Notes under the pieces: generated by a model | Told to the model about the DNA's origin: nothing | Seen by the model: only the letters and a program-made list of their open reading frames with translations | The model's database searches: none | Assembly (NCBI RefSeq): GCF_902459465.1 | Contig: NC_047067.1 | Location: 17,422,001-17,486,000, forward strand | Source of the DNA: Asterias rubens | Lineage: Eukaryota | Direction of reading: 5' to 3' | Length of the DNA stretch: 64,000 nucleotides | In this document: positions 2,928 through 30,500 of the stretch, piece by piece | How the letters are laid out: every line of letters begins with the position of its first letter | Numbering within the stretch: position 1 is the stretch's first letter | Program-made: the position numbers and the translations under genes

Positions 2928-5900
2928 GTAAGAGCTAAAAATGGTATAAATAAATCCTCATGTCATCAGTAAAGTGGTGGAGCTGTGACCGTATAGTCGT
3001 CTATTTCCGACATAGAATGTCTTTTAAATAAAACCTAATCACATTTCCGCGGCATTGGATATAACTTGTTTATTTTGAAAAGTTAATTATTGTTGAATGA
3101 AAGAACACCTAAGACGTGCTGAGATCATCGAGCATGAATTGTTTGGCTTTGCTTTTTGAATTTTGGATTTGTTTGAATTTGGTTTGGACTGTTGTTGTGT
3201 TGTTTGTTTTGTTTTTCTCAACAATGTTTGTTTGTGTGTGTTTGGACTTGGAGAGTTAACATTAGTTGCGATAACGTAACCCTCCTCCCGACGGCCGCCA
3301 GGTCGGAGGGTTACGAGATTCCTTTGAGCGGAAACGGTTGATCTTGATCTGGTCCAACACGTACTATTTCGACAGCTAGTCACCAGATTTGCCCCATTTT
3401 TACCACTTTCAAAAATCATGACACAAATTCTGAGGGTACAAACTTAATCCGTAATGTCTAATGCAGCCTGCCATAATACTCAAAACACCATTTAGAAAAT
3501 AATTCGAGGAAAAATGGACAAAAACTTACCAGATTCCAGAGCGAAATCCCAGGTTCATATTTTGAACCTGTCGCATCGCTTTGTAAACGCATTATTTTGT
3601 TGTTGGGCTAAACCATTCTGTTACAATGTTGCAGTGCTACAGTGCGTGCGCGCCATTATGAGTGAACGGCGTGCAATGCAAACGGACAGCACGCACACGC
3701 ACTGCAACATTGTAACACCCCTATTACAGAAAGGTTTAGCCCAACAACAAAATAATACGTTCAAAATAAGTTAACATATGCAAAGCTTGATATATTACTG
3801 CAAAAGAATTATTTTTACGCCTCAGTCAAACCTACCTCCATGGTCAAACTATAGTCAAACTCCAGAGCATCCTTACCTAACCTTGCTCTATCATGTATTG
3901 TATGGTCAAAAAGGACAAAGCAGGGCTGTTCAGTCAATGGATCAATTAATTGCATTTTTTGTTAAATTCTATTTTATAGCATGTTTAGTAGATTCATGTG
4001 GTCACACTAAAAAAGCTGACCAGTGATGATGACAACTGCCAAAGTCACCTGGAAGTGGTATTTTTTAAAAATAAAGCTTTTGTCACTAATTTGATGAGTG
4101 GAATGTGAAAAAACAGTTAACTAAGGTTTTAAAAAATCAGGTCCTATGTTATTTACAAATTAGTAGACCCCGACCCGAGAGAGCGCTGTTCGTGATGTCA
4201 ATCGAGGCAGGCTTTGCCTGTAATGCGTAGAGTAAACACAATTGCAAAGTACATGTACGGACCAAGTCGTGAGTTTGTACTTTTCAACAACAAAAAAATG
4301 TTTTTTTTCCCGGCAATGCCGACCAGGTGTATTGCTGCTGAATGCAGAAAAACACTTTTTGAAATGTACCAACTCACGACTTGGACGACATGTACTTTGC
4401 ACGTGTGTTTACTATACGCATTGCAGGCAAAGTCTGCCTCGATTGACGTCACAAAAGGGGTAGGCGGAGTCAGCCCCCCAAACAATGTTATATATTTTGT
4501 AAACATATAAATCGTGACAAACAATTACTAGAAAAATTGTTTTATTGTTCGTAAGCATATACTCTTATGTTTGAAAGAAAAAAAATTCTATTTCCAGGTG
4601 ACTTTAAATGCACTTTCAAACAATATTTGAACAAAAATAAACAGTATGTGTAAGAGTAATAATAAAATATGTATCCAAATTACCTTCAATCTATTGAAAA
4701 AGTTTTATTTTTAACTGTAAAAAAAAGGGTTTTTATTTAATATTACCACGATTTAGTAACAAAAAGAAGCGTTTGCCATGATGCTACTACTGGAACGCAC
4801 TTGGACAATACCATATGAATTGAGTTGGTTCAAGGGCTAATACATTTTTTTTTACTGCTGTTTTTGTTGGTATAGAGCAAGACAACTTACTGATCTTAAT
4901 ATACACTTTATTGATACAAAAAGTTCAGTAACGAGTGGATGATCCGAAGGCGTTGATGACAGCCTGGCACTTTCTTCTCATGCTGCACACAAGTCTTGTG
5001 ATGCGCTGATGATGAGGGATGGCGTTCCATTCTTCATTAAGGAACCTGGTTAGGTCAGCCACAGTTGATGTGTTGGTGGTTCTGGCACGGACAGCGAGGC
5101 CAAGCTGGTCCCACAGATGTTCCATCGGATTCAGGTCTGGACTGTTAGCGGGCCAAACCATCCGGTGCACCCCAACATTTTTCAGGTAGTCAGTCACCAG
5201 TCGGGCTCGATTGGGGCGAGCGGTGTCATCTTGAAAGATTGCATTTGGTCCAAAGTCTGCAAGTATGGGACTGCATTCGGCTGTAGAATATCGTCTTGCA
5301 AATACCCATCAAACAAGGTGTTTTTCATGAGATGAGGGTAAATTATTGTGTCCGATGAGCTCACTGGTGCAATTCATTGTGTAAACCATTAATGGTTCTG
5401 AAAAGCTTGATCGGTTTGATTAATGAGCATTACCTATTGACCATTCACAGACAACGGTAATTTTGGCACATTTGGTTTGTGACTTTGCCTCATTGTTATG
5501 CATGTAGCCAAGTTCAGCAACATGTAATCATTGCAAATGTGATATAATTTTAAAGAGGAACAGTTCAGTTTTGCATTGATATATACCATATACACAGAGA
5601 GTATTAAATAATAACAAATATACTGGATTGAAAAAAGTTTCCTTACTTTTTGTGAGCAGTTTATATAAAAAATGTTGGGGTGCACCAGATGGATTGGCCT
5701 GCTAACAGTTCAGACCTGAATCCCATGGAACATCTGTGGGACCAGCTTGGCCTCGCTGTCCGCGCCAGAACCACCAACACATCAACTATGGCTGACCTAA
5801 CCAGGTTCCTTAATAAAGAATGGAACGCCATCCCTCATCATAAGCGCATCACAAGACTTGTGTGCAGCATGAGAAGAAGGTGCCAGGCTGTCATCAACGC

Positions 5901-8900
5901 CTTCGGATCATTCACTTGTTACTGAACTTTTTGTATCAATAAAGTGTATTAAGATCAGTAAGTTGTCTTGCTCTATACCAAACTTCTTGTCTCAATAAAG
6001 TGGATTAAGATTCAGTAAGTTGTCTTGCTTGTTTGAATTACAGTGTCAATTTGATTGTTCACACAGTAACACAAAATTGCTAATTTTGGCACATTTGATT
6101 TGTGACTTTGTCTCATTCTCATTAACGTGGTCAAGTCCAGCAACATGTAATCATTGCAACTGTGGTATCATTTTAAAGAGGAACAGTTCAGCTTTGCATT
6201 GATATATACCATATACAAAGAGAGTATTAAATAATGACAAATATACTGGATTGAAAAAAGTTTCCTTACTTTTTGTGAGCAGTTTATAACACTAAAGTTT
6301 TTAACACTCGGGTAATTGTCTTCATTTACTGTAGATCAGGAAAAGATGTTTAAGCTTAGTGACAAACTACTGATGCTGTGCGCTGGTGAGACAGGAGACA
6401 CTGTGCAGTTTGCTGAATATATACAGAAGAACATCCAGCTATACAAGATGAGAAATGGTAAGATCATATGTAGACACCTTCCAGTGTCAAGTGACAACAG
6501 TGAAAATAAGTTTGTTAACTATGCATATCTGTTCAGGCATGTCCTCCCAAAACACTGAATTTAAGTACAGAACAATTATTTTACAATGTAGTAAACAGTG
6601 GAGTGGCCAAGTGGTCTACTGGCACTGCAATGAAAATGATTCCAGGTCTTGTCAGAGTGTGGGTTTGGGTTCTGCCGTCGGTTACACCAAACTCTTCCTA
6701 ACTTAGGATGGTGCTTGTCTAACTGGAGGTCTGTATTGTTGTGAATAATTTTGTGCTATGTAACTAGCCGCTGAACTTGACGTCGCGAGTGTTTGAAGTT
6801 GGAGTTCACCCAACACGGCAGTTACTGAGCTTATAGTCATGCATAATAAATAGTGCAGCTCGGCATTGGATGGCTGTGACTTTCCTGATGTGTGTGTAGA
6901 TCCCAGACTGGACTGCAGTATTCAATGTTTGGACGAACTAAACTCTAGTAGGCCTGGATTTTGACTTTGCGGGGGGGGGGGGGGGGGGGGGGGGGGATGA
7001 CTCCAAGCATCCCATTAGCGGTAAGATTCAAGATGAGTTGTCATTATTACCATCTAGTGATTTGTATTGTGACATCATAAATTGTATCTTAAATTCACAG
7101 GGTATGAGCTGTCCCCACATGCAGCAGCAAACTTCACAAGAAAAAATCTGGCAGACTTTCTCAGGAGCAGGGTGAGTCTTTTAAGAGATTACTTATAAAT
7201 CCAGATGAATCTGTCAATTAGGCGAAGAAACAAATAATGGAAAATTTGTTTTGTATAAGTCCACAACAAGAAGCTAAGTGAACAATAGGTTGTATAGTAG
7301 AAAAACATGCAGTCAATCAGGAAATGTTTGAAATTAGCAGTTTTTGTTTATCAGTTTAGTTACAAGAAATAGAAATGTTTTTGTTTGATTTTGTTTTGTT
7401 TTGACCTTATATAATACTAGAGCTGTGATTCGGTAACTTTCTGATTTCTATCTCAATAAACTGTATTATTTTAACTGCACAACTATTCAACATTACTGAG
7501 GGGGTACTTGTCAGAGTTACAGGGCAGTACCAAAAACTATTTCCAAATACCATTGTCTAAACCTTATCTCTTCTAACTATTGTTTTCAGACACCATATTC
7601 CGTCAATATGTTAATAGCAGGCCACGATGACCAGGACGGCCCGTCATTATATTTTATGGACTACCTGGCATCCCTCAACAAGGTCCCTTATGGAGCACAT
7701 GGCTACGGTGCAATGTTCTCACTCAGTATCATGGACAGACATTATAGGAGAGGTGAGGAACCAGACTACATTGGCTTGGACTATCATCATCTTTTACAGT
7801 ACAGAAACGAATTTGAGAAAAAAAATATCTCAGTGCAAAGATTTATAATTGTGTCTATTCTATCTGCACGATGAGAAAAATTATTAATAATGATTATAAT
7901 CCAGTATTTGACCATTCGGCACCAGTGTGATTTAAACACTGTTGACTGGTGGAGTGCCAAGGCGGAGCTGTGTAGTGCACTAGACTTAGGTTTTTTTGGT
8001 AAATTTCAGGGTCTGGGTTTGATGCCTGGTCAAGGCACTTGTGTCCTTAAACAAGACTCTTTACTCGCCTGTGATCACGGATGTGATATTAACTATGTCC
8101 TATTCTAGAGCAGAGTTCTTGTAAGCGTTTTTAGTGACAAGATGCCAGAGTAAAATGCCTGTGGATGTGTTTCCTCTGGATTCAGGGACAGCACTGAGCA
8201 CACGGTGCTTCTCACTCATTGGTGTCAGGTCAAATCCAAAATAATAACTTCTTGTTTTTTCCATCCATGTCTCAGACTTGATTCCTTTTTTAATTAATAC
8301 TCCTTTATGACCCTTTTTGTTGTTCACATTGGCAGATATCAACCAAGAGGAAGCGATGGATATTCTGAAGAAATGTTTAGTGGAGGTAAGTTGACAGTTT
8401 TATTGGGAGGGGGGAGGGGACTAAAGATGTGAGTGGGCGTGCTCTTAATATACAGGAATAAGCACAGAGTTTAAAACAATGGTAAACTTGTTGCTGTGCT
8501 CATGAAAAATATTGTCCCTAACCCTAGCAGTGTCAGTGTTCCTGTGCCGATAATACCAGATCAAACTTGTTGACTGTGTGTTGGCGAGGTCGATTGAATA
8601 AGACATTTGTATTGGTTTAAACTTGCCATGTGCGGATGACCTTTGTGAAAATTCAAGTTTTAGAAATCAGTTATGAACTTGGCAGTCATTGTTTCTTGAA
8701 TTGTTCTGTGGGATTTCTGTAAGAAAGGGGGCAATTTACAGATTAAAATGCATGCCATTACCCATATACATAGAGAGCATTACATTTAGCAATTTATGGT
8801 TAAGCAGCAATATGGTTAAAAGTATAGTCATGTATTTATAGGAGAATGTATACAGAAAGATATAATAAAAGTCACTTGGATAGTTTCAGCTAAATTCAGT

Positions 8901-9410
8901 GATATACGTACTTGTTGAGAAAACAGTAAACTGTCACGGTATTTTCACAGGAATTTTTAATACATTTACCAACCGCATCTCTGGCTGCAGCATTCCCGAA
9001 TGAACACCAGCCATCAGAAACCCTGAAAAACGATTGAATAAATCGTTTTTTTTATTCAAATGTTTTGGGGTAAATTTTTTTAGCAATTAGTTATCTTTAC
9101 AAGGTTTCAGTCCAGCAGATATGAAGTACTTCTGTTTTTCAGCAGATATGAAGTCCAGCAGATATGAAGTACTTCTGTTTTTCATTAATAACAAAACGGA
9201 ACGACAATAAAAAGCATAAATGTTGTGAATTAAATAGGTTTAAGTATTTAATTTAAAAGTGACGTTGAATCTGTACTGATCTACTTTTTATGTTTCACTT
9301 CTGTAAAGGTACAAAAGCGATTTTTGATCAACCTGCCTGCATTCCAAGTCAAAGTTGTAGATAAGGATGGTATTCACTCCCTACCAGTCATCGACGCAAA
9401 AACTCTCTGA
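2837..9410 (+). CDS. PSMB2: Proteasome subunit beta type-2 (spliced gene, 6 coding exons, 199 aa)
   Basis: join(2837..2927,6335..6457,7101..7171,7590..7752,8336..8385,9309..9410) = 600 nt, all GT-AG. Protein [18 protein letters not shown]...[21 protein letters not shown]...[12 protein letters not shown]...AHGYG...KRFLINLP is recognisably PSMB2. Confidence 0.97.
4041..4607. mobile_element. Non-autonomous Kolobok-like DNA element with THAP-like N-terminal remnant
   Basis: TIR AAAGTCACCTGGAA.. / TTCCAGGTGACTTTAA; internal + strand peptide [14 protein letters not shown] resembles the start of a THAP zinc finger. Confidence 0.5.
4867..5340 (-). pseudogene. Tc1-family (DD34E) transposase C-terminal remnant, inverted
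   Basis: Minus-strand translation [42 protein letters not shown] has 34 residues between D and E and the WPxxSPDLNPxEHLW Tc1 motif; frameshifted upstream. Confidence 0.9.
5458..5665 (+). repeat. Extra copy of Tc1 right terminal repeat
   Basis: 208 bp direct repeat of 6081-6288 ending ...TTTTTGTGAGCAGTTTATA. Confidence 0.8.
5668..6288 (+). mobile_element. Tc1 element 3' end (transposase tail, 3' UTR, right TIR, TA)
   Basis: ORF 5680-5925 [19 protein letters not shown]...[12 protein letters not shown]; AATAAA signals; TIR ends GAGCAGTTTA-TA. Confidence 0.9.
6335..6457 (+). CDS. PSMB2: PSMB2 exon 2
   Basis: TAG acceptor; (D)[40 protein letters not shown]; donor G|GTAAG. Confidence 0.97.
7101..7171 (+). 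CDS. PSMB2: PSMB2 exon 3
   Basis: CAG acceptor; (G)[23 protein letters not shown]; donor G|GTGAG. Confidence 0.97.
7590..7752 (+). CDS. PSMB2: PSMB2 exon 4
   Basis: CAG acceptor; [54 protein letters not shown]; donor G|GTGAG. Confidence 0.97.
7930..8090 (+). mobile_element. Degenerate tRNA-derived SINE fragment
   Basis: Decayed A/B-box-like head followed by GGCACTTGTGTCCTTAAACAAGACTCTTTAC, similar to the SINE core at about 39055. Confidence 0.4.
8336..8385 (+). CDS. PSMB2: PSMB2 exon 5
   Basis: CAG acceptor; (D)[16 protein letters not shown]; donor G|GTAAG. Confidence 0.95.
9309..9410 (+). CDS. PSMB2: PSMB2 exon 6 (last coding)
   Basis: AAG acceptor; [36 protein letters not shown]. Confidence 0.95.
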
Positions 9411-14400: not shown

Positions 14401-15488
14401 TTTTAGTGTTTCTTTTTTATGCCATACAATTTCATTAGGTCTGGGTTGAGAAAGATTATGAATCAATCTGTGACAAGGTGAAGAATGTCCTGCCACATCA
14501 TCATTATTTCCACAGGTAAATTATATATTTGTTTTTTCATAGAGGCATCTTATTCGTAAGTCAGCTATTATGATGTTTGTGAGCGCCATCTTGGCTTGTA
14601 GACCCTGTTGATCTTAACAGTTTCAAATAGACCCCTTGGGTCACCATGGTTGAGGTCAAACAATGCACAACTCTTGGCCAATGATGATAGGTCTTCCTTT
14701 GACCTCAGTTAAGCCGGCCTCAGGTCGACCTTGCGTCAACAAAAAATAGTCGGCAACTGACTTTTCAGGATCACATTGCGCCTGAGCTAAGACTATGGGG
14801 AACTTTTCCGTCGGCGATTATTTACGACCTGATCGTAACTGCGATGATTTTAAGACAATCTGAAACAATTGCCGCTCGAAAAAAATTAACAGTCTCAAGA
14901 GTTGAACAGTTTCAACTTGTACGACATGATCCCGACATTCAGGAACCAATCGCAGGTGCACGATTTCTCAGTTTCATGCTCCTTCGCTTCGCTCATCCGC
15001 ATGAAAAACAGTTTCATTCTAAGAACAGCCTCAATGATTACACTATACGACAAAATGATTCAATTTCTGAATTATTTTAATGACAACTTTGGATAAGGGC
15101 CAGGATTCAGATGCCCTTTGAGATAAGGGCCAGGATTCAGATGCCGATTACCCTGGAGTAATTCATAACAATAATATTATTTCTTTAAAAACATTCAGAT
15201 TAAATTATAAGCAAAATACTGTTTTGACAACTCATTAAATATGAAACTAATAATCCATAATTTTTCATGATACATTTCAATTGAAAATCTATTTGAAAAG
15301 AAATTACATAATTCAATATCACCAATAATTCCACCGAGGAATTTTAGCCCTTACGGCTCTTCGGATTATCTGTCCGGCCAAAAAACTCATTAATAACAAA
15401 GAATTCACCTCTCTCAAGTTCCAATCATGAAACTTTGGCCCTTGAGGCTCTACTGAACTTTGTCCTCAGTCCATTTCTCTTCACCGAA

Positions 15489-15537
<49 letters not shown>

Positions 15538-18500
15538 ACCAATCAATTCTAACTCCTTTACTTTTCGCACAGAGACCTCGATAAGGCCAAGCGAGTTTCT
15601 ATATCCCGCTTAATGTACCTGTTTTTGGCTTGTTGGGTTTTCCACCTACCATGCTGCATGATTAACTCTTCCGATATACCCTTATTGGCCAAATGAGTAG
15701 CGCCTCCAGAACGCATGCTATGTAAACCAAAAGACTGCGGACGCTCTATGCCAATTTGTTTCATTGCATCTAAAAAGATTTCCCTGCATCTGGTATAACT
15801 AAGAGGTTTGTGCTTTACCGGTTTGTAAGATTTTGTGCTCGAATGAAATGATAAGGCTGTAAATACATACACATCTTCGCCACATTGTATATCACATTGA
15901 TGCATATATCTACGTAACATTGTTACTGGACAGTAAGTATTCTGTGTGCACGACAAAAAAGTAGTGTTGCCATCTCTAAAAATGTCCGTTTTAGAACGGG
16001 GAATAAAAATTCTCAACCCGGCTTGATTTTCTAATTCAGTGATGTGGCATGCTTTTAGTTGTGCCATCTCATCGTGTCTGAACAGAAGAGAAAACATTAA
16101 CGTCACATAACAAGCCGTCCTTAATTGTATGAGACTACTTTCTTGATTAGCGAATTTATCAGCTATAGATCTCACATGATCAATTGTTAAAGGTTCCTTC
16201 TGCTCTGGGGGTTTATGCAGTGATTTTCTTTGGCTGATTACAATCTGTTTCAGTAGTGGAGAGTCTACTGGGTTTGACTCGATATTCAGGAGAGAATGAA
16301 GCCATTTAATTGCAGCGGAAATCGTAATTATTGAACTTTCAGATTGCGACAAATTACTCTTATCGATGATAAAAGCAGCAACAACAGTGTCTTGAACTGG
16401 GAATCGGAGAGGAATTTTATGAGCAACCAACCAAGCGAAAAAATCTCTGCATTTATAAAGATAACTGTTTAGAGTACTCTCTGCTTTGGCTAACAAAATA
16501 TCCTGAAAAATTTGTTCCTTGAATGCGTCTATACTGTTGGGAAAGCTTGACCAAAAATCTTGACTGCGAATGACCTATACAGCAATTAAGAGAAAATTAA
16601 TTAAGAATAAATAATCAACTCATGTAACTTAATCAAATCTCAGTACAATCAATATATATGGCACATACTGGACTAGTAAACGTATCTGAGCCCAAATAAG
16701 AATTCTTGTTATTCCCCAACTCTAAGATGTCTGAACCTTCAAGAGTTATCATTCCCGTAATCCATGTTCTGTAACAAGACCATAACAAAGGCCAAAAGGG
16801 GGAGGAGGGCCACCAGGGGAAAACAAGGGCTCCTCTGCCTTTACATAAGTACAAATGTCTTAGAACACTAGGGATCAAAAGTACAGGGGGCACTAACAAA
16901 CAATTCTCTTTTGACCAATCCTGTGCTAAGGCATCTACGCCGGCTGTATTTGGATTCCAAAATCTGGAAAAGAAGCGGGACACTTTAGCATTATAATAAC
17001 TTGCAAAACAGTCAACTGAGAAAGGACCCCATGTATCATTGATTATGCTGAAGAATTTGTCTGAAATCATCCAATCATCTAAATCGATCAATCTACTGAC
17101 AAAGTCTGCTTTGTCATTCATGGTTCTTGGTATCCATTCTACTTCTAGACGCACATTGTTATTAATACAAATATTGAAAATATCAATTGCCAAACTATGT
17201 AAATCCACCTTCATGCTTCCTACTTCCACTATACGAGCTGCTGACTGACTATCTGTGAAGATTTTGAGTTGTGAATTGGATACTATTGGCAGGAATGATG
17301 AAATTGCAAATAATATTGTATCCAATTCTCGCCAAGTGGAACTTCTTTTTGCCTCAACTTCAGTCCAATTTTTGTGAGCTGTATGGATATCATTACATAA
17401 TATAGCACCAGATCCCACTGCACTTGCATCCCCACATACTATCTTGTTCACTCTGGTGGAAACAAATAGATAACGCACATTTCTTTTTGAAGCATTACTC
17501 TTCCAAAATTCAATTTCTGACAAGCACAAATTATCAAGTTTGATAATATCGTCTTCATGATGAGCCTGTGATATTTTCACTTGGCAGTTCCTAGTGGATA
17601 GTCTAGTTAAATTACCAACAACAGGGCCCAGAGATATGATCTGGCCTACAAAAGAATGTAGCTTGCGAATTGTGACAACGTCTGCAGAAGTCAACTCATT
17701 GATAGTGCGCAGAATTTTATCAACGCGCCTCTGGGAAACTCGCAAAGTGCCCTCTACGGAGTCCCAATGCATGCCAAGCCAAACAATTTGGTTAACAGGA
17801 TTCCAGCAAGATTTGTCCATGTTATAAACTAAACCAGATCTTATCAAATCAACTTTTACATGTTGGGAGATTTTACTTGCAATGTGAAAATCATTTGTGT
17901 TATTATCACATGAAGCAGGTACCACCACAAAACCATCATCTAAGTACAGGGCAATGAGAATGCCACACGATCTCCAGTGGGTCACGAGTGGTTTCATCAT
18001 CTTGGTGAATAATAATGGTGCGGAAGACAACCCAAATGGAAGAACAGTAAACTCAAAATATCTGCGAACATTGTTTATGATCCAAGAAAAACCCAAGTAT
18101 TTCTGATAGTCGGAAGAGATATCAATGTGGTGATACCCTGATTTCAAATCAAATGAAAACAAGTAAGCATTCTTTGAAAGAAATTGAAGACCTACTTTCC
18201 AGTCATCTAATTTAAAATGCATCTTTGGGACATACTCATTTACGTTAATCAAATCCAAAATCAACCTTCTTTTACCAGATGCCTGATATGCAACAGAAAG
18301 GGGATTGACAACAAATGAAGGGTTTAATTTTTCTTCTATTCTACCAGAGCTTAATAACTCTGAAATTGTCTCCGTCACAAAGGAATCTTCCTTAATTGCC
18401 GACTTGTTATTTTTGAAAAACATGGATGGTGGTGATGTAATGAAAGGAATGCGGTAACCCTCATTGATAACAGACAAAACCATGGATGATGCCCCTATAT

Positions 18501-21500
18501 GAAACCAAAATTGTGAGTGAGCTCGTAACCTGCCTTTCACATTGACTTTATCAGAAATTAAATTCTTAATACTGCTATCCTGATAATCACATCGTACCTC
18601 CAACACGTCAGCAAACTTATGTGACAGGCTTGCCACCTTAAGAGACGCTTGAGCCTGACGTTGATGGCGCTGCAATTGACTCTGCGGGCTTGAATGAGCC
18701 TGTGGGCGTGGTTCCCGCAATTGCTGGTAGGAAGTTGTACCCTGTTCGATGAAAGGCGGGAGCTTGCCATGGAACCGACACACCTCTGGAGTGGAAAGTG
18801 TTGTATCCAAGGGGAAGAGCCGTCTGAGCTCGGGATCGGACTCGGTGTGACAGTGGGGGGCCTGTTGCGTAGGGACACTCCCGGGCCCAGTGGCCAGGCA
18901 TTCTGCAGCTGAAACACACATCATTTGGCATGCCTAAAATGTATAATGAGAAAAAATACAAACAGCGAGAAAAACTGGAACTTCATATAAGGAAAACACG
19001 AACAATATGGGTAACCAGCAGTGAACGACCTGAAAGAACTCACTGGTCACTACCGTAGCTTTATATATCCGAATGCTTTAATGCTTCGGTGAGTTTACAT
19101 CAATTCTAGGCGTGGCTCCCTTGAACCATGACCAACACTTTGCATTGAACGGGGGGCACACTCCCATCATTGATGCTATCCCAACGAATGAAACTAAATT
19201 TTCATGCTCCTTCGCTTCGCTCATCCGCATGAAAAACAGTTTCATTCTAAGAACAGCCTCAATGATTACACTATACGACAAAATGATTCAATTTCTGAAT
19301 TATTTTAATGACAACTTTGGATAAGGGCCAGGATTCAGATGCCCTTTGAAACAACCAAAGACAAAAGGGGGAATTTAACGTTTTACCTCGAAAAAGACTA
19401 CGGTCACCAAAATTCTTGAAAACCACCCCATCTTGCTGTCGTCTATCCGAAGTCTTTTGTTTCTTTCTTCCTTCCAATTCTTTGAGAGCAGCGTCCTCAG
19501 CTATCTGCACCTTCTTCTGATCTTCGGAAGACTGGTCTCTCTTGCCGCCCTTCTCTAACTGTTGAATGGTGATCCAACCTGCTCTACTGCTATCAGCGAT
19601 CTTGATCTTTTGCTTTCTATCCGCTAAAAGGTCCTCAGCCTCGTGAATAGCTTCGACGACCTTGTCTGTATCACCCTTCTGCAAAAAGGCGACTTTTATT
19701 TTATCTAGAATAATCTCTAGCTGTCCACAAAACAGCAATTGGGCAGAATTACCGGGCTTGGTCAACTCCTTCGCTTCCAATTTTATTTTGAGTTCCTTCA
19801 CCGCTGTTTCATCTGTGATAGTGGAGTTAGCCAACTTGTCGAATTTCTTGTCGAAATAACTCTGAAACTTTTCAAACAAAAGCTCAGTGCTTAAAGCAGA
19901 ACCGTGCTCCTCTGCATTAGCCATAACACTATCAGAACTTCATATAAGGAAAACACGAACAATATGGGTAACCAGCAGTGAACGACCTGAAAGAACTCAC
20001 TGGTCACTACCGTAGCTTTATATATCCGAATGCTTTAATGCTTCGGTGAGTTTACATCAATTCTAGGCGTGGCTCCCTTGAACCATGACCAACACTTTGC
20101 ATTGAACGGGGGGCACACTCCCATCATTGATGCTATCCCAACGAATGAAACTAAATTTGTTGTGACCTGAGCATATTTTGTCTGTGCATTGTCGACGGTT
20201 AGTTGCGGGCGCAAGAAAATCGTAGGTCTACCTGAGGCCGGCTTAAGAGTACTGTAAGGATTTGTGACATCATACATGTCACAAATGTAAGGGTTTTGTA
20301 TTTTTTGGAACATTCGATTGTTTATTTCACCTCCATGGTAACCTTGTTGTCAGTGGGGTACGATCTTGCTGTACCATTACTTAACAGAATACCTTGCTCA
20401 ATCATAGCTCCTTGGTGGATTTTGAAATTTCAAAATATATTGGCTGATTGGGTATTTTATTAGTGCTGGGGTATGATCCGTAATGCAGTTTAGGGTCAGT
20501 TTAGGATGACGTTATAAATCATATTTGAAGTGATTTTGGCACATGCATTCTAAGCCCCTTACATTCAAGCACCCTACCAAGCATTTGAATGTTTTTAACA
20601 AGCTTGCGCGCAGAGCAGTCACTTTAAACCAATCCGCATTGTTTTTTTCACCACATCTCTTCCAGATTGATCGGGAGAGCTGCCTCCCTGGATCCTGGTT
20701 TAAATCCTACCAGGGGTAGAACTAAACTAAAAGTCTTAGGTTTAGACTCTACATTGGTCCTTGAGTCTTGTGGGTTTTTAGACCGTCTCGCATTACTGAT
20801 ATTTCCTCCCACATCTGCAAAACATTGTAATAATAACTAGACATTAGGTGTGTGTGAACAAACACAAAGCTGTTCCGTGTTCTTTTGCTTTGATTATGTG
20901 TTAACATTACCAAGGAGTCTATAACTGAATGTTTGAAAAATACTGTACAGTGTCTTGAGTTACGGTGCCACTTCATGGGGTCACGGTAACCTAAGGCTAA
21001 TCTCTAACGCCCAAGGAGTCTGTAACTGAAAAAAAGTTAGAAAATCGGTTGTGTAGTTCTTGAGATATGGTGCCACTTCTGGTTGACCCGGAAGTAGAGG
21101 TCAACTTGGGGTCATGGATTTTCAAAGTTTATTTTTTATGCCTTAGGAGGATAAAACTGAACAAACAGGATTGAAAATCGGTTGTATAGTACTTGGCGTA
21201 TGGTCCCACTTCCGGTTCACCCGGACGTAGAGGCCAACATGGGGTCACGAGTTTTCACAGTCAATATTAATGTCAAGGAGTCTGTAAGTGAAAACAAATT
21301 GAAAATCGGTTGAGTAGTTCTTGAGATATGGTCCCACTTCCGGTTGACCCGGAAGTAGAGGTCAAATTGAGGTCACGGTTTTTCCAAATTTTTCTCCTAT
21401 CCCCAAGGAGTCTTATAACTACAAACAGTCGACATTCTTAAAGAAGAATGTCGTCTTCCTGTGATAATTTATCTCGGAATGTCGACATCCTAAAAGTAGG

Positions 21501-24500
21501 ATGTCGTCTTCCTGTGATAATTTATCTCGGGAAGTTGACATCCCGAAAGTAGGATTTCTTTTGTTGAAAGGATTTTTCTTGTATACGTTTTGTTAACTAG
21601 TATTACATTTCCAACAATATTTATAATATTCATGGTCATAAACTACGTTAAACTAAAATAATGGACGAAACAAAATGTCCCACTCCATAAGGTTTGGAAC
21701 ATAATGGTCCCGCAAGTTCAAATACGCGCGAGACTTGCTTAGTCTACACAGAAGGTAATAAATCATTTATTACAAGCAAATGCAATCGTACAATAATAGA
21801 AAACAAAAACTAAAAATCAATGCAAAACACATGTAGGGGATGGAGGGGCCCATAAAAAGCAAACCTTAACGAGTACGGACCCCCCCCCCTTTTTTTCTAA
21901 CGAAGAAAGCAATGTAAGCAATTCTATTTAGTGGGTGTAATCTTATGTAGCGGCAAAACATTTCAAATTTACAGGAAGAACAAACACAAAAACAGTTAGC
22001 GTAAAATAAAACTTAACCATATATTTAAATGAAACAGAAAAACAAAATACCAAAAATAAATACTAGATAAATTGGGCCCCACAACTCTTGCTGGGAAAAA
22101 AACCATGTCGAAATATACCATTGTTATCCATTAGAGACGTTTTGTAGTCACTTTGGTTGGGGAGCGAGGAATCTAGCAAAAACACACGAAAATCCAATGG
22201 CTGGGACATCAGTTTATACACCAGACAAATCTATTATATGGATATTCTTTTGAATATTTTATTTTGTGCATATGGTCCGTGATTCATGGTCCGTTAAATA
22301 TAAGTGGGCGGTTGTATCGACAACAGACTTTTATCCTTTTGATCACCATCAGCCCCATGTATAATAAACTTCAACGGCTGACGATTGCACTTTTGGTATT
22401 GTCAATGTTAAACTCCGGTTCCATTGTGTGCTGTATGTTACCCTCCACGCATAGATTTTCATGTGAATAGTAGCTGTGTATGATTCATGGTTCGCTGAAT
22501 AATGTGGCGATAACAAACTTTTATCCTTTTGATCACCATCAGCCCCATGTATAATAAACTTCAACGGCTGACGATTGCACTTTTGGTATTGTCATTGTTA
22601 AACTCCGGTTCCATTGTGTGCTGTCTGTTACCCTCCACACATAGATTTTCTTGTGAATAGTAGCTGTGTATGATTCATGGTTCGCTGAATAACGTGGCAA
22701 TAACAAACTTTTATCATTTTGAACTGAATGCTTGATTTATTATCTAGAGGTAAATGCTTGAGGCCAGTAAGAGTATTGTGCACGTACACCATGTAGTTTT
22801 TGTTGGAAACCGTTCGCTAACAGCCATTTATGTTACCCTGTGAAATAAAATCAGAAAATTTATAAGTTTGCTTGTTGCATAAAATTAAATTGAAGATGAT
22901 GCCTGAATTGATTTTTACGATCAGACTTGGACTCTAGACTGACGTGTTGGACTCCTTGAACACTCCAAGTGGTTCAATAGGTAGTGCAATTCCAATACTT
23001 ATGCTGATGTTCTCATGATGTCAGCATCAACAGGAAGTTCCAACAACTTTGTCCCCTTGTACAATTAAATATGCAAATATGGGTCACGTGGTTAATTAAT
23101 TACGATTTAAAAAAAAAATTTGGGTCGGTGGTTTGATGTTTGATCTAGTACAAGTTGATTTCACAGAACCATTTTTCGCTTACTGTGTTTTTAAACATCA
23201 TCGTGTCATGCATGCACACAGGTTATGTTGGGCTAACATTTGAGAAAAAGAAAAGGCAACACTATCGATATAAAGATAAGAATCAAACTTAAATATTACA
23301 AAAAGAAATATATTTTTAGTTTTGGGGATACAAAAATATTGATTTCGGACGGAGATTCGAACTCGCAATTCTCAGATGTGTAGTCGCGACTGATGACCAC
23401 TAGGCTAGAAGGGCACGATGTAAAAATGGTGGGTTTTTACATGTGTGCATCAACAGAGGGGATTATGATCCGGCGAAATAGTTCTCGTTTCATGATTTTG
23501 CGACCATTGTCACTAAATATGAACTGCTAACGCCTATAACTATTAAGTAGGGTTGAAATGTAGTATTAGATGCCTTAAGGGGGTTTTTAATGACGACGTC
23601 GATGTCGTCAAAAACCCTAATTTAAAATAAAAATCTAATTACGCACGTTCGTTTTAACGAAACCCATGCACAGTAATTGGTCCAGAACGCGGTTAGAAAA
23701 ACAAGGACAAATTTAACGCACGTTCTAACGAAAATCCCAACCCTCCATACTTTGTACGTGTACAGAGTAATGTGTCCAGAACGCGGGTAGAAAACCAAAT
23801 AGTATAGACTCCTCTCAAGAAGTCAACAACTCATTGAGGTACATACTGTGTTGTATTACCAAAGAGAATGTTTCACAATAACATGAAAGTGACTGCATCA
23901 AGTTTACAAATTAAAAATTCAAATGAAGACCACGTGGTTAATTAATTAAGAATTTTAACACTTTTTTGTTAGAATAAAGCTTATGTTCTAAGCTTCAATT
24001 TGATATATGATTTAACTCTTTTATCCTCATACTTTAGGAGACGGGGCCTGAACAAAAACGCTGTACAAACGCTATGGGGTTTTAGGCGGAAACAAAGAAT
24101 AATAATAATAATAAAAATAATAAAAATCTCGACGAAAACAACACCTGTTCCGACGGTAGGTCGGAACAGCTAATAATAATAGAAAAAATGTATACAGCAC
24201 CATAGGTCTATCCATTGAAAACAATGCCCCATGGTGCTAATACAGAGAAACATTTAAAATATAGATAAACAGAAAAAACAACAAGGTATACAAATAAGTT
24301 CAAAATCGGCAAAAAATTCAAGCGAACAATGACGAGCATATTTAGCAATTATAGAAATAAACAACATACAATGGAAAATATACAATACAAGTATGCAAAA
24401 TATTAAAATGCAAAATGCAATTAGGGATTGTAAAAACAGACATGACAGACCAGCTGTGACCACAATAAAATTGTAAAAAGAGACACACCAAAACAAATTA

Positions 24501-27500
24501 ATTAAAGAACGGAAAATAAGTGCTAAGAGAGGCTTATAAACATTTTGTTGATAACATGTTTTCATCTAAGGATAACAAAAAACGTTTTTGGTCCTTTGTT
24601 CGTAGTAGAAAACAATCACCTACCCCATTGTCGTTTAAACATGGTGCCCAAACACAAGTCAACCCACATGAAATAGCTTGTGCATTTAATACTTATTTTG
24701 CTTCAGTCTTTTCTGCTGATGTCCCTGTTTGTCAAGACCCTCCCACATGTGATTTTCCCATTCCAGCTCTGTCTAGTATTAACTTCTCAGTTGATGATAT
24801 TCAGCGTACCTTATCTTCCTTACCTCTGGGGAAGGCTCCTGGGCCAGATGGAATCAACGCTAAATTCTTGCGTGACACAGTTTCTACAATCTCTCCGGTT
24901 CTCTGTAGAATCTTCAATGATTCCATTGCCTGTGGACGCCTTCCCCGTGGTTGGAAGCTTGCCAACATCACCCCTGTGTTTAAATCTGGTGACCGTTCCC
25001 TTCTTAGTAACTATAGGCCTATTGCTCTCACTTCTCTTGTTAGCAAGATCATGGAGAGACTGTTATCTGATGTTGTTAAAGATCATTTAAATTCTAATTG
25101 TTTATTGTCTGATAAGCAGCATCGTTTTGTTCCTCACAAATCTTGTGTCACCAAACTTTTGAATGTGTATCATTCATGGGCTACAACTTTAGATAAACGT
25201 AGTCCCCCAAGGATTGATGCAGTTTTCTTGGATATGAGCAAAGCTTTTGATCGTATGCCCCATCATATACTTGTTCGTAAACTTGCTAGTAACTTTAACA
25301 TTCGTGGATCTCTCTGGAGCTGGATAAAAGATTTTCTGGTTGATCGTCAACAAAGAGTCACATTTGTTGGTATGAACTCCTCATGGTCCGTAGTTAGCTC
25401 TGGTGTTCCTCAAGGAAGTGTTATTGGGCCTCTGTTATTCAATTTATTCATCAATGATATATCTAACAACCTCAGTTCTAATTGTGTTCTTTTCGCTGAT
25501 TATGTATTAATTTATCGTCCAATCCGTTTCTGTTTAGATGTAATTTCCCTCCAGCATGACCTTGATGAGCTGAGCACTTGGAGTGTTTCCAATGGTATGA
25601 CGTTCAACCCTACAAAGTCCAAAATTATGCATATTTCCCGTAAACACTCTCTCAACCCCCCTGTTTACACTCTTTCAGGTTTTCCTGTGCAACCCACATC
25701 CTCTGTCAAATACCTTGGAGTCACTCTGAATGCTCAGCTCTCTTGGAATAACCATGTTAAAAATGTTGTTTCAAGTGCCAATAGAACATTGGGCCTCATT
25801 AAGACCATTGCTTTCAATTCTTCTGTTTCAGCTAAGTTCTGTCTTTATAAATCCCTAGTTCTCCCTATTTTAGAATATGGCATGCCAGCATGGCTTCCTC
25901 ATACATCTCTCCAGACTCAGGCCCTTGAACGGGTACAAAAACGTGCTACTCGATTTATTCTCGGGCAGAGGATGGGTGAGATGTCTTACCCCGATAGACT
26001 TAAGTCCCTCAACTGGTCGTCTCTGTCAATTCGTCGCAATTTTTCTGTTTTGTATTTCATCATTAAGTGTAAGTTTAACCTTATTCATTGTGATGTGGCA
26101 GACATCATTTCTGTCAACCATAGATATCCTAATGTTCTCACCTTCAAACACCTGTATGGTAGAACCGATGCTTTGCATTTATCTGCTCCTCATCTTTTCC
26201 CCAGACTTTGGTCTAGTTTGCCAGAAAACATTTGCAATTCACTACTACTGCTCTTGCCCTTCCACAGCTTTCTTAAATCACTTAGATTTTCTGTCTGCCA
26301 AGCTCATGCATCTATTGTCATGTATAGTACCTTTAGCTGAATTACTTGTTCAATATTTTAAGTTGTTTAATTTATCTACAAGTTTACTTTTTATTTATTT
26401 ATTTATTTCCTTTTGTTGTTTATCCTTACCTTATCATTATATCTACTTATTTACTTTAAATTTATTTTGTATTCTTATTATATATTTATTATTTGCTATT
26501 GGTTGTATAATTATCTGTTTTTTAATGCTTTGTGTACTACATGTATATTATGTTAATCTATATTAATTTTATTGTGTACCCCAGATGTGGGGCAACAGAT
26601 CTACGGATCATAGTATGTATTTGCTTTTGTTGTCCCTTGCCCATCTCGGGGTATATTGTCAATGTATTATGTTTTATATTGTTATGCCAAATAAAATAAT
26701 AATAATAATAATAATTACCTTAAGTGATAGTAAAAATCACACAACAACTACAAAAACACTATACAAACATGCCTTTCGGAACAAATAAGTTTTTAGCCCG
26801 GATTTAAAAACATCAATTACTCTCTGTTTCCCTGACGCACAAATTCAGCTGGTTCCACAATTTAGGGACAATGGCGGAAAAAACTCTATCCCCAAATGTG
26901 CATAATCTGGTGTTACAGGGCTGTAGTCTGGTTTTATCACATGACAACCGTGTGTTTCTACTAGTAGTATGCAGTAATTTACAGAGATAGTCAGGGGCTA
27001 GACAATTTAAACATTTATAAACTAAAAGAAACATTGTATACATGATTTTATAATTCACTTCAAGCCAATGGAGCTTCGTAAGTACAGGGATTATGCTCGA
27101 ATTTTCTGGTTCCTGTGAGAATCCTGGCAGCAGAATGTTGTACTCGTTGTTATGGTGCAAGTGTGGACTTGGGTAAACCTGCAAACAAGGCATTGCAATA
27201 ATCTATCTTGGACATGACTAGCATTGTTATAACTTGCTCAGTGACAGAATAATTCAAGTATTTCTTGATCTTACTGATATTATGCAGATGGCAATATGCA
27301 TTGCGAGATACCTCACAAATATGACTTTGCATGTTAAAAGTTACAATCAAAAGATGACCCCAAGATGTTTGGATGATGTAATGCAATATGGCCTCCAATA
27401 TCAATGTCTACAGCGGAAACTTTGTAGTCGTGCCAACAACAAAAACATCAGTCTTATCAGTGTTTAGTTTAATGAAGCTGTAGGTCATCCACGATTTTAT

Positions 27501-30500
27501 ATCGGTACAGCACTTCTCAATGACATTGACATTGGCTGCAGTGTCATCAGATGTTGATGATGTTGAGATGTAACGCATGATCAGGCCATGCTTGCGCAGC
27601 ATGTACACATTGAACAACAGTGGTCCCAATACCGAACCTTGTGGGACACCGTACTGAAGCTGATAAGTTGACGAGGCGGAGCCTGTTTTGTTGTTTTTGC
27701 ATATTCTGACAGTTTGGGATCTGTCAGAGAGGTAGGATCTAACCAGCGCAGAGTGTCCTCCGACAAACCGAGATGCGACCATCTGCTGAACCACATGGAT
27801 GTAGACAAGTTTTATTTTTACAACCAAGTGGGTTGTCTAGCACTTTAAACATGCAAGTTACGCCACCTCGGCTGACACTGATGAGGCCTCTGAAGTAACT
27901 GCATTTGGCTGCTCTGAGAAGTCCAATGACCTTGTTCTGTTGATTTTTGTACAAGTCTCTGTCAATTGTAAGTTTCGTTGAGTGCTATCTGCTCTCTGGT
28001 CTCTTTTTCTTCACTTTATTACTGGGCAGATCACCAGAGTACCAGGATGTATTGAGACGAAGAGTGCAAGTTTTTGTCACTAGTGGAGCATGTTTATCTA
28101 GAAGATTGCCCAACACTGTATTGTAAGTATCAGCATGAACATCAGAGTCGGTGTCTCTCGTAGCTATGTCAACAAATGGTGATCCTGTGACATCCTGAGC
28201 AAAACGAGTAACATCAATGTTCTTGATCTTTCGATAAGCCAGAGATGTCCGTTTGTGTGTGTGTTTGTGGACATCGAGTGTGCATGTAACCAGAAAATGA
28301 TCAGATATTGTAAGATCAAATACTTCAACATATTTGATGATGTCGAGTGATGAATGAGTGATTATCAGATCTAAAACATGTCCTCGGTTACATGTATGTG
28401 TCTGTTTCTGCACATGCTGCTTGAGACCGCAAGATTCCAGGAAGTTTGTGAAAGCCATGGTGTCGTGATTATCTGGTCGATCACAATGTATGTTAAAATC
28501 ACCCATGATTATAAGCTCCATCGGGGAGGTGAGCATATCCTCCAAAAGATGACCAAACTCAGTGAGAAATATGTTCATACTGGAAGCATTTAAAGCAGGA
28601 TCCAGTGAGGCAGCTCTCCCGATCAATCTGGAAGAGATGTGGTGAAAAAACAATGCGGATTGGTTTAAAGTGACTGCTCTGCGCGCAAGCTTGTTAAAAA
28701 CATTTGAGTGCTTGTAGGGTGCTTGATTGTAAGGAGCATGGTACTGTTTTAATCTTGTAAGTTTTTTTTTAAATCCACTCTTAAACTATTTAGGCCTAAT
28801 TTTGTAATGTGTCTTGCAATTGATTTATGTCACACTTACAAACTGGATTTGATTGTGGTTGTCCTTCTTACAGCGGATGCATTGGAAGTGGCTTGTGCAT
28901 TCTGTCAAAGTGGCCCATCGTGAATAACTTCATGCATCGTTTTGCACTGAACAGTTTTGCCTACCATGTCTTTGAGGGAGACTGGTTTGCTGGCAAAGGG
29001 GTGGGGTTATGTGAACTGGAAGTGGAGGATATGACTGTGAACGTCTACACATTACATGTGAGTTTAGGTTTTTGACCATGTACTCTTTGTTTACATGGTC
29101 CCAATTGCATAAAGCTGCTAACCTGGCTAAGCACAACAATTTGCTTAGCTTGAAATCCTTGATAAAAACAGGATTACCAAAAACAAATTCTATTTGTTGC
29201 ATATTGCTTGATACTGGTATTCAGCTGTTGTTTGCTCGTCCTGAAAATCACAGGGAATTTTGGTTGGTAATCTTGTTTTTATCAGGTAAAAAATTTCATG
29301 CTAATCAAATTTTTGTTTTTTAGCAGGTCTATGAGATTGGGCCCTGCCCTTTATTAAAATTTGTCTGCCAGTGTGCGTTCACTGTCAAAGTTCACTCAAA
29401 AGAATAAGGCTGTGCCCTAACTAACTGGTTCAGCAATGGCTATTGATAGATCAATGGAAAGTCCTAATCTTTAACATTACTGCAGTAGCCAATAGCCATA
29501 GCTGTAGCCAAAGTCAACTGATTCAGACATGGCATTTAGTTCACTGTGATGGATTATGAAAGGGTATAGCTTAATTCCCATCATTAAACCTAACTTGTCC
29601 AGCAGTTAATTTTTCAATGTTATTGTTTGTGGATCAGGGTTATGGTTTTCTTTCCTTGCCTTTCACCTGTATGGACCCTGGTTTGAGTTCCACCTCATAC
29701 CGAGCCTATGCATGTAAATCGGGTTTTCACATAGAGTTATATTTAAGAACTAGAGGGCGCACAGATGATACTTCTTGCACAAACGCGACGGGAACGCAAG
29801 GAGACAAGCACGCGCCATCCTGTCTGCCCGTTGAATAAGAAACACACGCTGGAGTTTGTGTTTATTGAACGCTACGCGATGCTGTTTTTTCAACTTACAA
29901 AATGGCCGCACAAACACACGCTGTGAGATAGCTGTTTCGCGCATGCCGGGGTGCGTATATAGGCCAGTGCGCCCTCTAGTTCTTATATATAACTCTAGCG
30001 GTTTTCAGTTCCTGCCTGATTTTTTACATGCACCTGTATATGGGCGTTCCTCCCACATTTGAGAATTCCTTTGTTTTTGTTACCAGTTTCGGCTGACTTA
30101 ATTTGTGATCTAATTTTTTGCCTGTAGAACGTTGCCCTTTATGCACCGTCCGGCATCATCTCTGCAGACAAGTTATTTACGCATCGCCTTCTTCAAAACT
30201 ATGAAGTGAGTGAGTTCGTGAGAGTAACGGGGGCTAGCAGTGATGTGAATATAGTGGCTGGTGATTTCAACACGGAGGACTTCTCGTTGGGATACGAGGT
30301 TGCATTGGTAAATGCGGGCCTTAAGGACGCATGGAAGAAATGCATCAATCAGGACACCAAGGTATGTAAAAGGGGTAAATTAAATCATTGGAGTGGTAGG
30401 AGACCAATTTAAGTGGTAGGCTCTAAGTTCAAATTTGTTGAAGTCCATCATGGGAGCGGTTCACGACTTGTGTCAACGAGGGCTCTCCCCAAGGGCCTCT

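Follow-up and report, generated by a model that had tools for sequence, protein, structure and literature searches.

The 64,000-nt stretch of Asterias rubens DNA analysed here (assembly GCF_902459465.1, contig NC_047067.1, positions 17,422,001 to 17,486,000; hereafter the window) carries, in an intron of SMPD2 and nested in a miniature inverted-repeat transposable element (MITE), a whole PAT-like tyrosine-recombinase retrotransposon. The element is recently copied and transcribed, and its internal repeat junction (B1|A2) lies in a spliced intron of gag; the full reading that we consider probable adds a likely +1 slip at a UUU_CGA site and a junction hairpin that is possibly a single-stranded substrate of the tyrosine recombinase (YR).

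Two reading frames of the window match SMPD2 chain 8j2f (E 6e-15 and 0.026), and RNA contigs splice exon end 14515 to 28874, across the insertion site; thus the element lies antisense in a 14.4-kb SMPD2 intron (14516-28873), as an earlier note on this sequence had proposed. Copies of the host MITE without insert read CTCAG TT GTTGTG at the insertion point, and their comparison with the filled site bounds the element at 14972-20156 and reveals no target-site duplication, in agreement with that note on both the nesting and the missing duplication. Its description of the MITE as a 343-bp TTAA element, however, fails: among the 10 parsed of 15 loci in the MITE family (5 unparsed), identical 3-bp TTA/TAA flanks were found in five, the window copy having TTA/TAA, while TTAA flanked both sides in none, and the TTAA (piggyBac-type) label was rejected on that count. 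As rebuilt from its sequence, the host MITE is about 347 bp long with a TWA duplication. Such a 3-bp duplication characterizes PIF/Harbinger-type MITEs, and the identical flanks in 5 of 10 parsed copies agree with such a type for the host MITE. In a comparison of the left flank with runs X13 and X6, loose ends traced to other MITE copies, which mask any empty allele.

In a self-comparison of the window, the A repeats (18978-19201 and 19935-20158) match over 224 bp and the B repeats (14972-15121 and 19200-19349) over 150 bp, each pair with 0 mismatches, so that the identity claimed earlier holds with corrected family-wide lengths. A is 222 bp, and the element ends at 20156, because the outermost 2 nt of the A1 match (20157-20158) belong to the host target; B measures 144 bp in every other copy to retain the 3′-untranslated region (L006 excepted) and reaches 150 bp in the window copy because of a 30-nt duplication. 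The three frames listed in the earlier note (222, 766 and 338 codons) are all open, yet a fourth, 114-codon CCHC frame (18638-18982) had gone unlisted. Pfam searches of the element frames returned RVT_1 (1e-17), Phage_integrase (4e-11) and zf-CCHC (1e-5), with RNase H (RH) families weak; the methyltransferase (MT) family Dam scored 2e-5 at 24.7 bits, under the cut-off of 28.1, and several homologs carry precomputed matches to the same family. Aligned to Cre and Tre, the YR has R166, K195, H285, R288, W311 and Y320 all in place. RNA-type runs cover the element from end to end: it is transcribed. Thus the structure described earlier is real, but the splitting of gag, the two introns, the relation between the frames and the hairpin at the junction had been overlooked.

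A copy search in genome G000, with 40 of 134 candidates scored, found at least 11 near-identical loci of the family. Five are full-length, at 99.0-100% identity, and four of these five keep all four frames open; the remaining loci comprise an internally deleted copy (L009), three of the form A-RT-YR-B (L006-L008; RT, reverse transcriptase), one A-gag-B (L011) and a 178-bp remnant (L019). These numbers, with the mismatch-free repeats, bear out the suggestion that the element is very young.

Table 1. Features of the element and its host site (window coordinates).
Feature	Position	Strand	Remarks
Whole PAT-like tyrosine-recombinase retrotransposon	14972-20156	-	5,185 bp; order A1-gag-B1A2-RT/RH/MT-YR-B2
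A1 repeat	19935-20156	-	222 bp
TATA-like TATATAAA in A1	20024-20017	-	likely promoter (putative role)
gag exon 1	19387-19924	-	ATG 19924; 538 nt
CTT TTT CGA, predicted +1 frameshift site (UUU_CGN)	19388-19396	-	ends 1 nt before donor; putative function
Intron 1	18934-19386	-	453 nt, GT..AG; houses B1 and A2; predicted, joint then observed, conserved
B1 repeat	19200-19343	-	144 bp
ATTAAA in B1	19309-19304	-	likely poly(A) signal (putative role)
Two-stem hairpin spanning B1|A2 junction	19187-19247	-	GCGAAGC in loop; crossover point 19200/19199
A2 repeat	18978-19199	-	repeat match to A1
gag exon 2 with CCHC knuckle	18638-18933	-	spliced Gag 277 aa
Linker + RT + RNase H + methyltransferase-like frame	16633-18933	-	YLDD at 17946; +1 relative to gag
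Intron 2	16575-18597	-	2,023 nt, GT..AG, phase 0; linker to YR; predicted, matches RefSeq models
Tyrosine recombinase exon	15558-16574	-	Cre-like; earliest Met is residue 160
Genomic poly(A) tract	15491-15536	-	36-58 nt among copies
30-nt duplication, inner edge of B2	15116-15145	-	includes 6 nt of B1 flank; likely template-switch scar
B2 repeat	14972-15115	-	repeat match to B1
SMPD2 exon upstream of host intron	14437-14515	+	match to SMPD2 and RNA contig joint
Left part of host MITE	14712-14971	.	comparison with MITE relatives
Target dinucleotide and right part of host MITE	20157-20243	.	comparison with MITE relatives

The internal B1A2 block splits the N-terminal part of gag from its zinc knuckle. 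From the sequence, splice sites were predicted at 19386 (donor, GT) and 18934 (acceptor, AG) that would unite the two parts in frame, and the 453-nt joint was seen in contigs of three of the four runs compared, from two studies (X3, X5 and X7; over 15560-19934), with contig depths at the joint of 1335, 464 and 31 and of about 480, 185 and 40 for the unspliced pieces, respectively; contigs of the shallow run X15 lacked it. X3 and X7, the two runs whose RNA status was verified, are RNA because SMPD2 exons are covered and introns are not; all RNA and copy comparisons here rest on assembled contigs. No genomic copy without the 453 nt exists among the G000 loci of the family. Furthermore, the donor TTTTCGAG|GTA and acceptor AG|GC are kept in other G000 families whose A and B bodies are divergent, as are the splice sites in metagenome relatives whose RT is 45-49% identical. 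It is the splicing of intron 1 that brings gag and its zinc knuckle together. A search of the ESM Atlas with gag exon 1 returned unnamed clusters only.

A separate arrangement was found in L161 (877-1275; also L158-L160 and L162), where a repeat block seemingly splits the knuckle itself (C-F-K | C-G-E-F-G-H) and has a pyrimidine-AG acceptor, the single visible donor reading ATAAGT. As this family lies far from the main intron clade in the RT tree described below, it possibly represents a second origin of the intron.

The B1|A2 junction in intron 1 folds into two stems around a bubble (z -5.0 versus 200 shuffles), and 9 of 14 junctions fold at z -2.6 or lower. Across these nine folding junctions and families, pairing holds in 88% of cells, and both partners have changed in 10 of the 22 pairs, a result reached by 0 of 500 shuffles. 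Cells with G-T (13) outnumber those with A-C (2), which favours the sense strand. Among 69 genomic matches to the loop GCGNAGC all four N are present, the search pattern having fixed the remaining letters; in the available part of PMC13037366 this loop is described as a stable DNA mini-hairpin (it and the other papers cited by accession are drawn on from parts of their text).

The ends of the insertions are one-sided: AAA is kept in 41 of 42 right ends, while of 32 left host ends only 16 carry AA. Permutation is absent from all 19 copies with two junctions (20 rows, one locus being entered twice); three permuted-looking metagenome contigs (L102, L108 and L109) were set aside, since collapsed repeats can generate such forms. 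If integration proceeded by staggered exchange from a double-stranded circle whose two junctions are equal, permuted copies should arise and mismatches should appear at either side. The double-stranded-circle model, to which the circular intermediates cited in the earlier note correspond, does not by itself predict either observation. Recombination of a folded single strand, with exchange of one strand, is a property of integron attC sites and CTX phage. The one-sided ends, the lack of permuted copies and the single-stranded cDNA of DIRS-1 (PMC7192593) favour such an exchange on the folded junction: at GAAA^A, the YR might cut the sense strand in its folded form and exchange one strand, host replication completing the insertion, a proposal we hold as tentative, somewhat short of an even chance. 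Several points weigh against it, namely that 5 of the 14 junctions have no strong hairpin, that the covariation set was limited to the nine that fold, with the structure taken from the window copy, and that the YR resembles Cre, a double-strand recombinase, with integron integrase absent from its 17 matches. Two strand exchanges on a double-stranded circle, with the hairpin an RNA signal or cDNA primer and not a recombinase substrate, come close to an even chance: this is the standard DIRS model (PMC7192593, PMC3266345), it suits a Cre-like YR, the A count is conserved at the sole site with a known empty allele, and the hairpin lies mostly within the B end, which the RNA would lack at its 3′ end but carry at B1. 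The one-sided ends and the 0 of 19 permuted copies speak against the circle, as does a loop described as a mini-hairpin of DNA (PMC13037366).

Substitutions among the copies are also strongly biased. Of 48 changes in 10 copies, 31 were T>C on the sense strand and only 2 were A>G (p 1e-7), and a G lay 5′ of the antisense A at 0 of 32 T>C sites versus 6.4 expected (p 8e-4; the context was noticed before it was tested). The excess fits misinsertion by RT as well as editing of the cDNA strand by an ADAR-type activity. ADAR enzymes avoid a 5′ G, and the strand asymmetry and the sequence context would both follow from ADAR-type deamination of antisense-strand adenines, in cDNA within an RNA:DNA hybrid, in place of polymerase misinsertion. 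This account is a minority possibility, though a serious one, because the context was spotted prior to testing, the bias was not repeated significantly in two older families (19 versus 12 and 17 versus 11), and rU:dG or dA:dC misinsertion by RT would produce the same T>C direction.

Exon 1 terminates in CTT TTT CGA G, and the RT frame is +1 to gag. A slip from UUU to UUC would make the next codon GAG, so that exon 2 is read in the RT frame; as the site lies 1 nt upstream of the splice donor, the shifted frame would exist only after splicing. UUU_CGN is the +1 frameshift motif of influenza A PA-X and of amalgaviruses (PMC5052127). The sequence CTT TTT CGN G stands ahead of the donor in eight families (window, L037, L048, L054, L047, L102, L108 and L115), N being A, T or C; as a baseline, 18 of 46 Phe-Arg pairs in RT frames are spelled TTT CG. 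Intronless relatives were compared as well, 14 in all, each representing a cluster and selected because its +1 frame is open. TTT CGN stands in frame at 13 of 1,285 codons of the overlap and at 5 of 2,197 codons upstream of it (p 0.003), 10 of the 14 elements carrying it, and RT is at +1 in 38 of 56 usable metagenome loci (80 loci, from which 24 without a knuckle or RT start were dropped). Slippage at this site would probably yield Gag-Pol (945 aa) and Gag-YR (629 aa).

Against slippage stand an RT-frame AUG (18924 in the window copy) that the L037 and L041/L054 families also have and at which the RefSeq models start; the lack of TTT CGN in 4 of the 14 intronless relatives and of a +1 relation at 18 of the 56 metagenome loci; and three degenerate copies (L046, L111 and L052) that deviate from CTT TTT CGN. 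Moreover, the families are related, so that the counts are not independent, and neither a frameshift product nor cDNA nor a circle was seen. RT and YR could instead be translated from that AUG on RNAs starting in A2, where the TATA box is as in A1, and TTT CGA would then be merely conserved coding or splice-enhancer sequence. The identity of A2 to A1, the AUG itself and the frequency of A-RT-YR-B half elements agree with this, but it is unlikely, given that the linker of family L048 has no AUG although its frame is open from the acceptor, that contig depths flanking A2 are similar (477 versus 486 in X3, a crude measure) and that TTT CGN is enriched in relatives without the intron.

For the recombinase, a second intron is predicted. 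The YR frame has no Met ahead of residue 160 and begins at a phase-0 pyrimidine tract-AG in all G000 families inspected (9 of the 10 listed loci); all 4 intact linkers retain the phase-0 GTAC donor of position 18597. The predicted 447-aa linker-YR product equals two RefSeq models labelled Asterias rubens (0 and 1 mismatch), with a third sharing the junction, and a homologous join is found in a Patiria miniata gene model. On the other side, contigs of the four runs contained no intron 2 joint, which counts against the splice. From conservation and the automated gene models, intron 2 very probably joins the linker to YR. A direct splice from the gag donor to the YR acceptor was rejected (phase 1 versus phase 0), and a search for longer YR fusions found none, which is weak evidence. 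RefSeq models P0151 and P0161 also join the intron-2 donor (window 18597) to an acceptor within RNase H.

Copy differences further bear on how the ends are made. In copies with both repeats, all three repeat changes (L001, 20087/19130; L009, 19974/19017; L005, 19270/15042) occur in both repeats. Since mutation after insertion would leave changes unpaired, the repeat pairs were copied from one template, and we are highly confident that both ends of the element derive from one template. The inner edge of B2 is duplicated over 30 nt in the window copy and 25 nt in L006, both carrying 6 nt of B1 flank, and these duplications are likely mis-registered template switches. Errors of assembly or polishing are a very improbable source of the private and paired differences: assembled contigs and not raw reads were compared, and the window copy's own A-repeat variant is never the majority letter in four runs, but the bias tracks the element strand on both genome strands (L004 on +), a shared variant at 17313 also shows in run X7, and the L009 deletion joint recurs in three runs.

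That RT-deletion joint of L009 (window 17232/18829) was found in RNA-type runs of two studies, and the RT-deleted derivative is therefore shared and transcribed. L019 (G000 C1), the A+B remnant, lies within an array of tandem repeats. Half elements, whether A-RT-YR-B or A-gag-B, occur frequently, the youngest family included (L006, L007, L008, L011, L038, L040, L043, L049, L051 and L055), and could arise via repeat recombination or YR action on the internal junction.

Elsewhere in the window, the same SMPD2 intron holds two RT/endonuclease remnants (24520-26340, +; 26813-28785, -), one with a 606-codon open frame, which we take by motif to be LINE-like. At 4867-5981, inverted repeats of 316 bp (96%) flank a transposase fragment, presumably Tc1/mariner-like by its motifs. 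Exons upstream of SMPD2 (7500-7874 and 9252-9407, +) appear to resemble proteasome subunit beta 2.

A replication programme can be proposed from these parts. Unspliced RNA from late A1 to early B2 would quite probably be the genome template, B1|A2 restoring both ends. Splicing of intron 1 would give Gag of 277 aa; a +1 slip before the donor would give Gag-Pol and, with intron 2 spliced, Gag-YR. The YR might then act on the folded sense strand at GAAA^A, with one strand exchanged and the insertion finished by host replication. A bolder and doubtful extension is that the programme as a whole resembles that of a retrovirus and is run by a clade of PAT elements in marine animals: unspliced genome RNA, a first splice for Gag and splice-dependent UUU_CGN Gag-Pol, a second for Gag-recombinase, integron/CTX-style integration of a folded single-strand cDNA junction, and a T>C footprint left at each cycle.

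A young PAT copy in an intron is in itself ordinary. However, RT and YR expression, end restoration and integration are largely untested in split-repeat YR retrotransposons, the models in the published texts consulted coming from DIRS-1 only. This family offers precisely placed sites for testing, namely two introns, a candidate slip site, a hairpin that covaries at the junction and a position for the cut, and its near-identical copies record the replication cycle. If the slip and the single-strand steps are true, a viral frameshift motif and bacterial folded-DNA recombination would extend to a eukaryotic retrotransposon.

The placement as PAT-like rather than DIRS or Ngaro, made in the earlier note, is upheld by every PAT feature that could be tested: split direct repeats A1-B1-A2-B2, RT/RNase H and YR without integrase, a methyltransferase domain after RNase H, no target-site duplication and a CCHC knuckle, here joined to Gag only via splicing. 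The element has no long inverted repeats of the DIRS1 kind; inverted terminal repeats with an internal complementary region (ITR/ICR) were found instead in L185-L197, several DIRS1-like G000 families, one of which has a 766-codon RT frame in about ten copies. Ngaro features fail as well, in that the element has an MT and its B1A2B2 does not lie downstream of YR, and a YR search of G000 returned no evident Ngaro.

A quick RT tree of 46 rows, carrying a long-branch warning, nested the element among relatives that include split-repeat, knuckle-bearing elements (support 100). Eight intron-type rows fall in one 13-row clade (SH-aLRT 96), itself within a 35-row clade with intronless relatives and G000 families having B1A2 after YR or between MT and YR, and ten ITR/ICR elements lie outside the latter. 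The tree has no named PAT or Ngaro reference among its rows; L145, L148 and L156 were dropped for an open stretch below 250 aa. Other layouts among PAT-like G000 families are B1A2 after YR (L181) and between MT and YR (L183). L181, L183 and L184 (G000 C12, C10 and C23) represent two further young PAT-like families with repeats 99-100% identical, and L183 shows a junction hairpin as well as TCT TTT CGT where gag and RT overlap. For PAT elements, neither a junction housed in an intron nor a UUU_CGN site nor a hairpin at the junction was described in the parts searched of PMC6681497, PMC4157794 with supplements, PMC9210276, PMC7192593, PMC3266345, PMC13003380, PMC5052127, PMC8547959 and PMC3212892, figures and two key Poulter-group papers lying outside this search.

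Among known systems, the junction shares with integron attC and CTX phage attP a long imperfect palindrome, two stems with a bubble, a crossover at the bubble edge and one-sided homology; it differs in that the YR is Cre-like by sequence and its use of a single strand hypothetical. As in influenza A PA-X and amalgaviruses, an in-frame UUU_CGN precedes a downstream +1 open reading frame (PMC5052127), but the element's putative site ends 1 nt before a splice donor. With the echinoderm form of Pat1 (SpPat1, compared by text description; PMC4157794; Szitenberg et al. 2014) the element shares the split A1-B1-A2-B2 repeats, MT, Gag zinc knuckle and YR orientation, yet its B1A2 lies inside gag, in an intron, a word that does not occur in the available text of PMC4157794; in the nematode form the repeats lie between MT and YR (PMC4157794). 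DIRS1-like elements have in common with it the RT-RH-MT order, a YR, no target duplication, an A-rich junction trinucleotide and ends restored from an internal junction (PMC3266345, PMC7192593), whereas the element has neither inverted terminal repeats nor ICR and a match between target and junction is not required (AA is absent from 16 of 32 left ends). Finally, Ngaro and VIPER likewise carry split direct repeats and leave isolated AB remnants resembling the 178-bp L019 (PMC8547959, PMC6681497), but as described there their B1A2B2 lies at the 3′ end and MT is lacking, unlike the element, which has an MT and an internal junction near its 5′ end.

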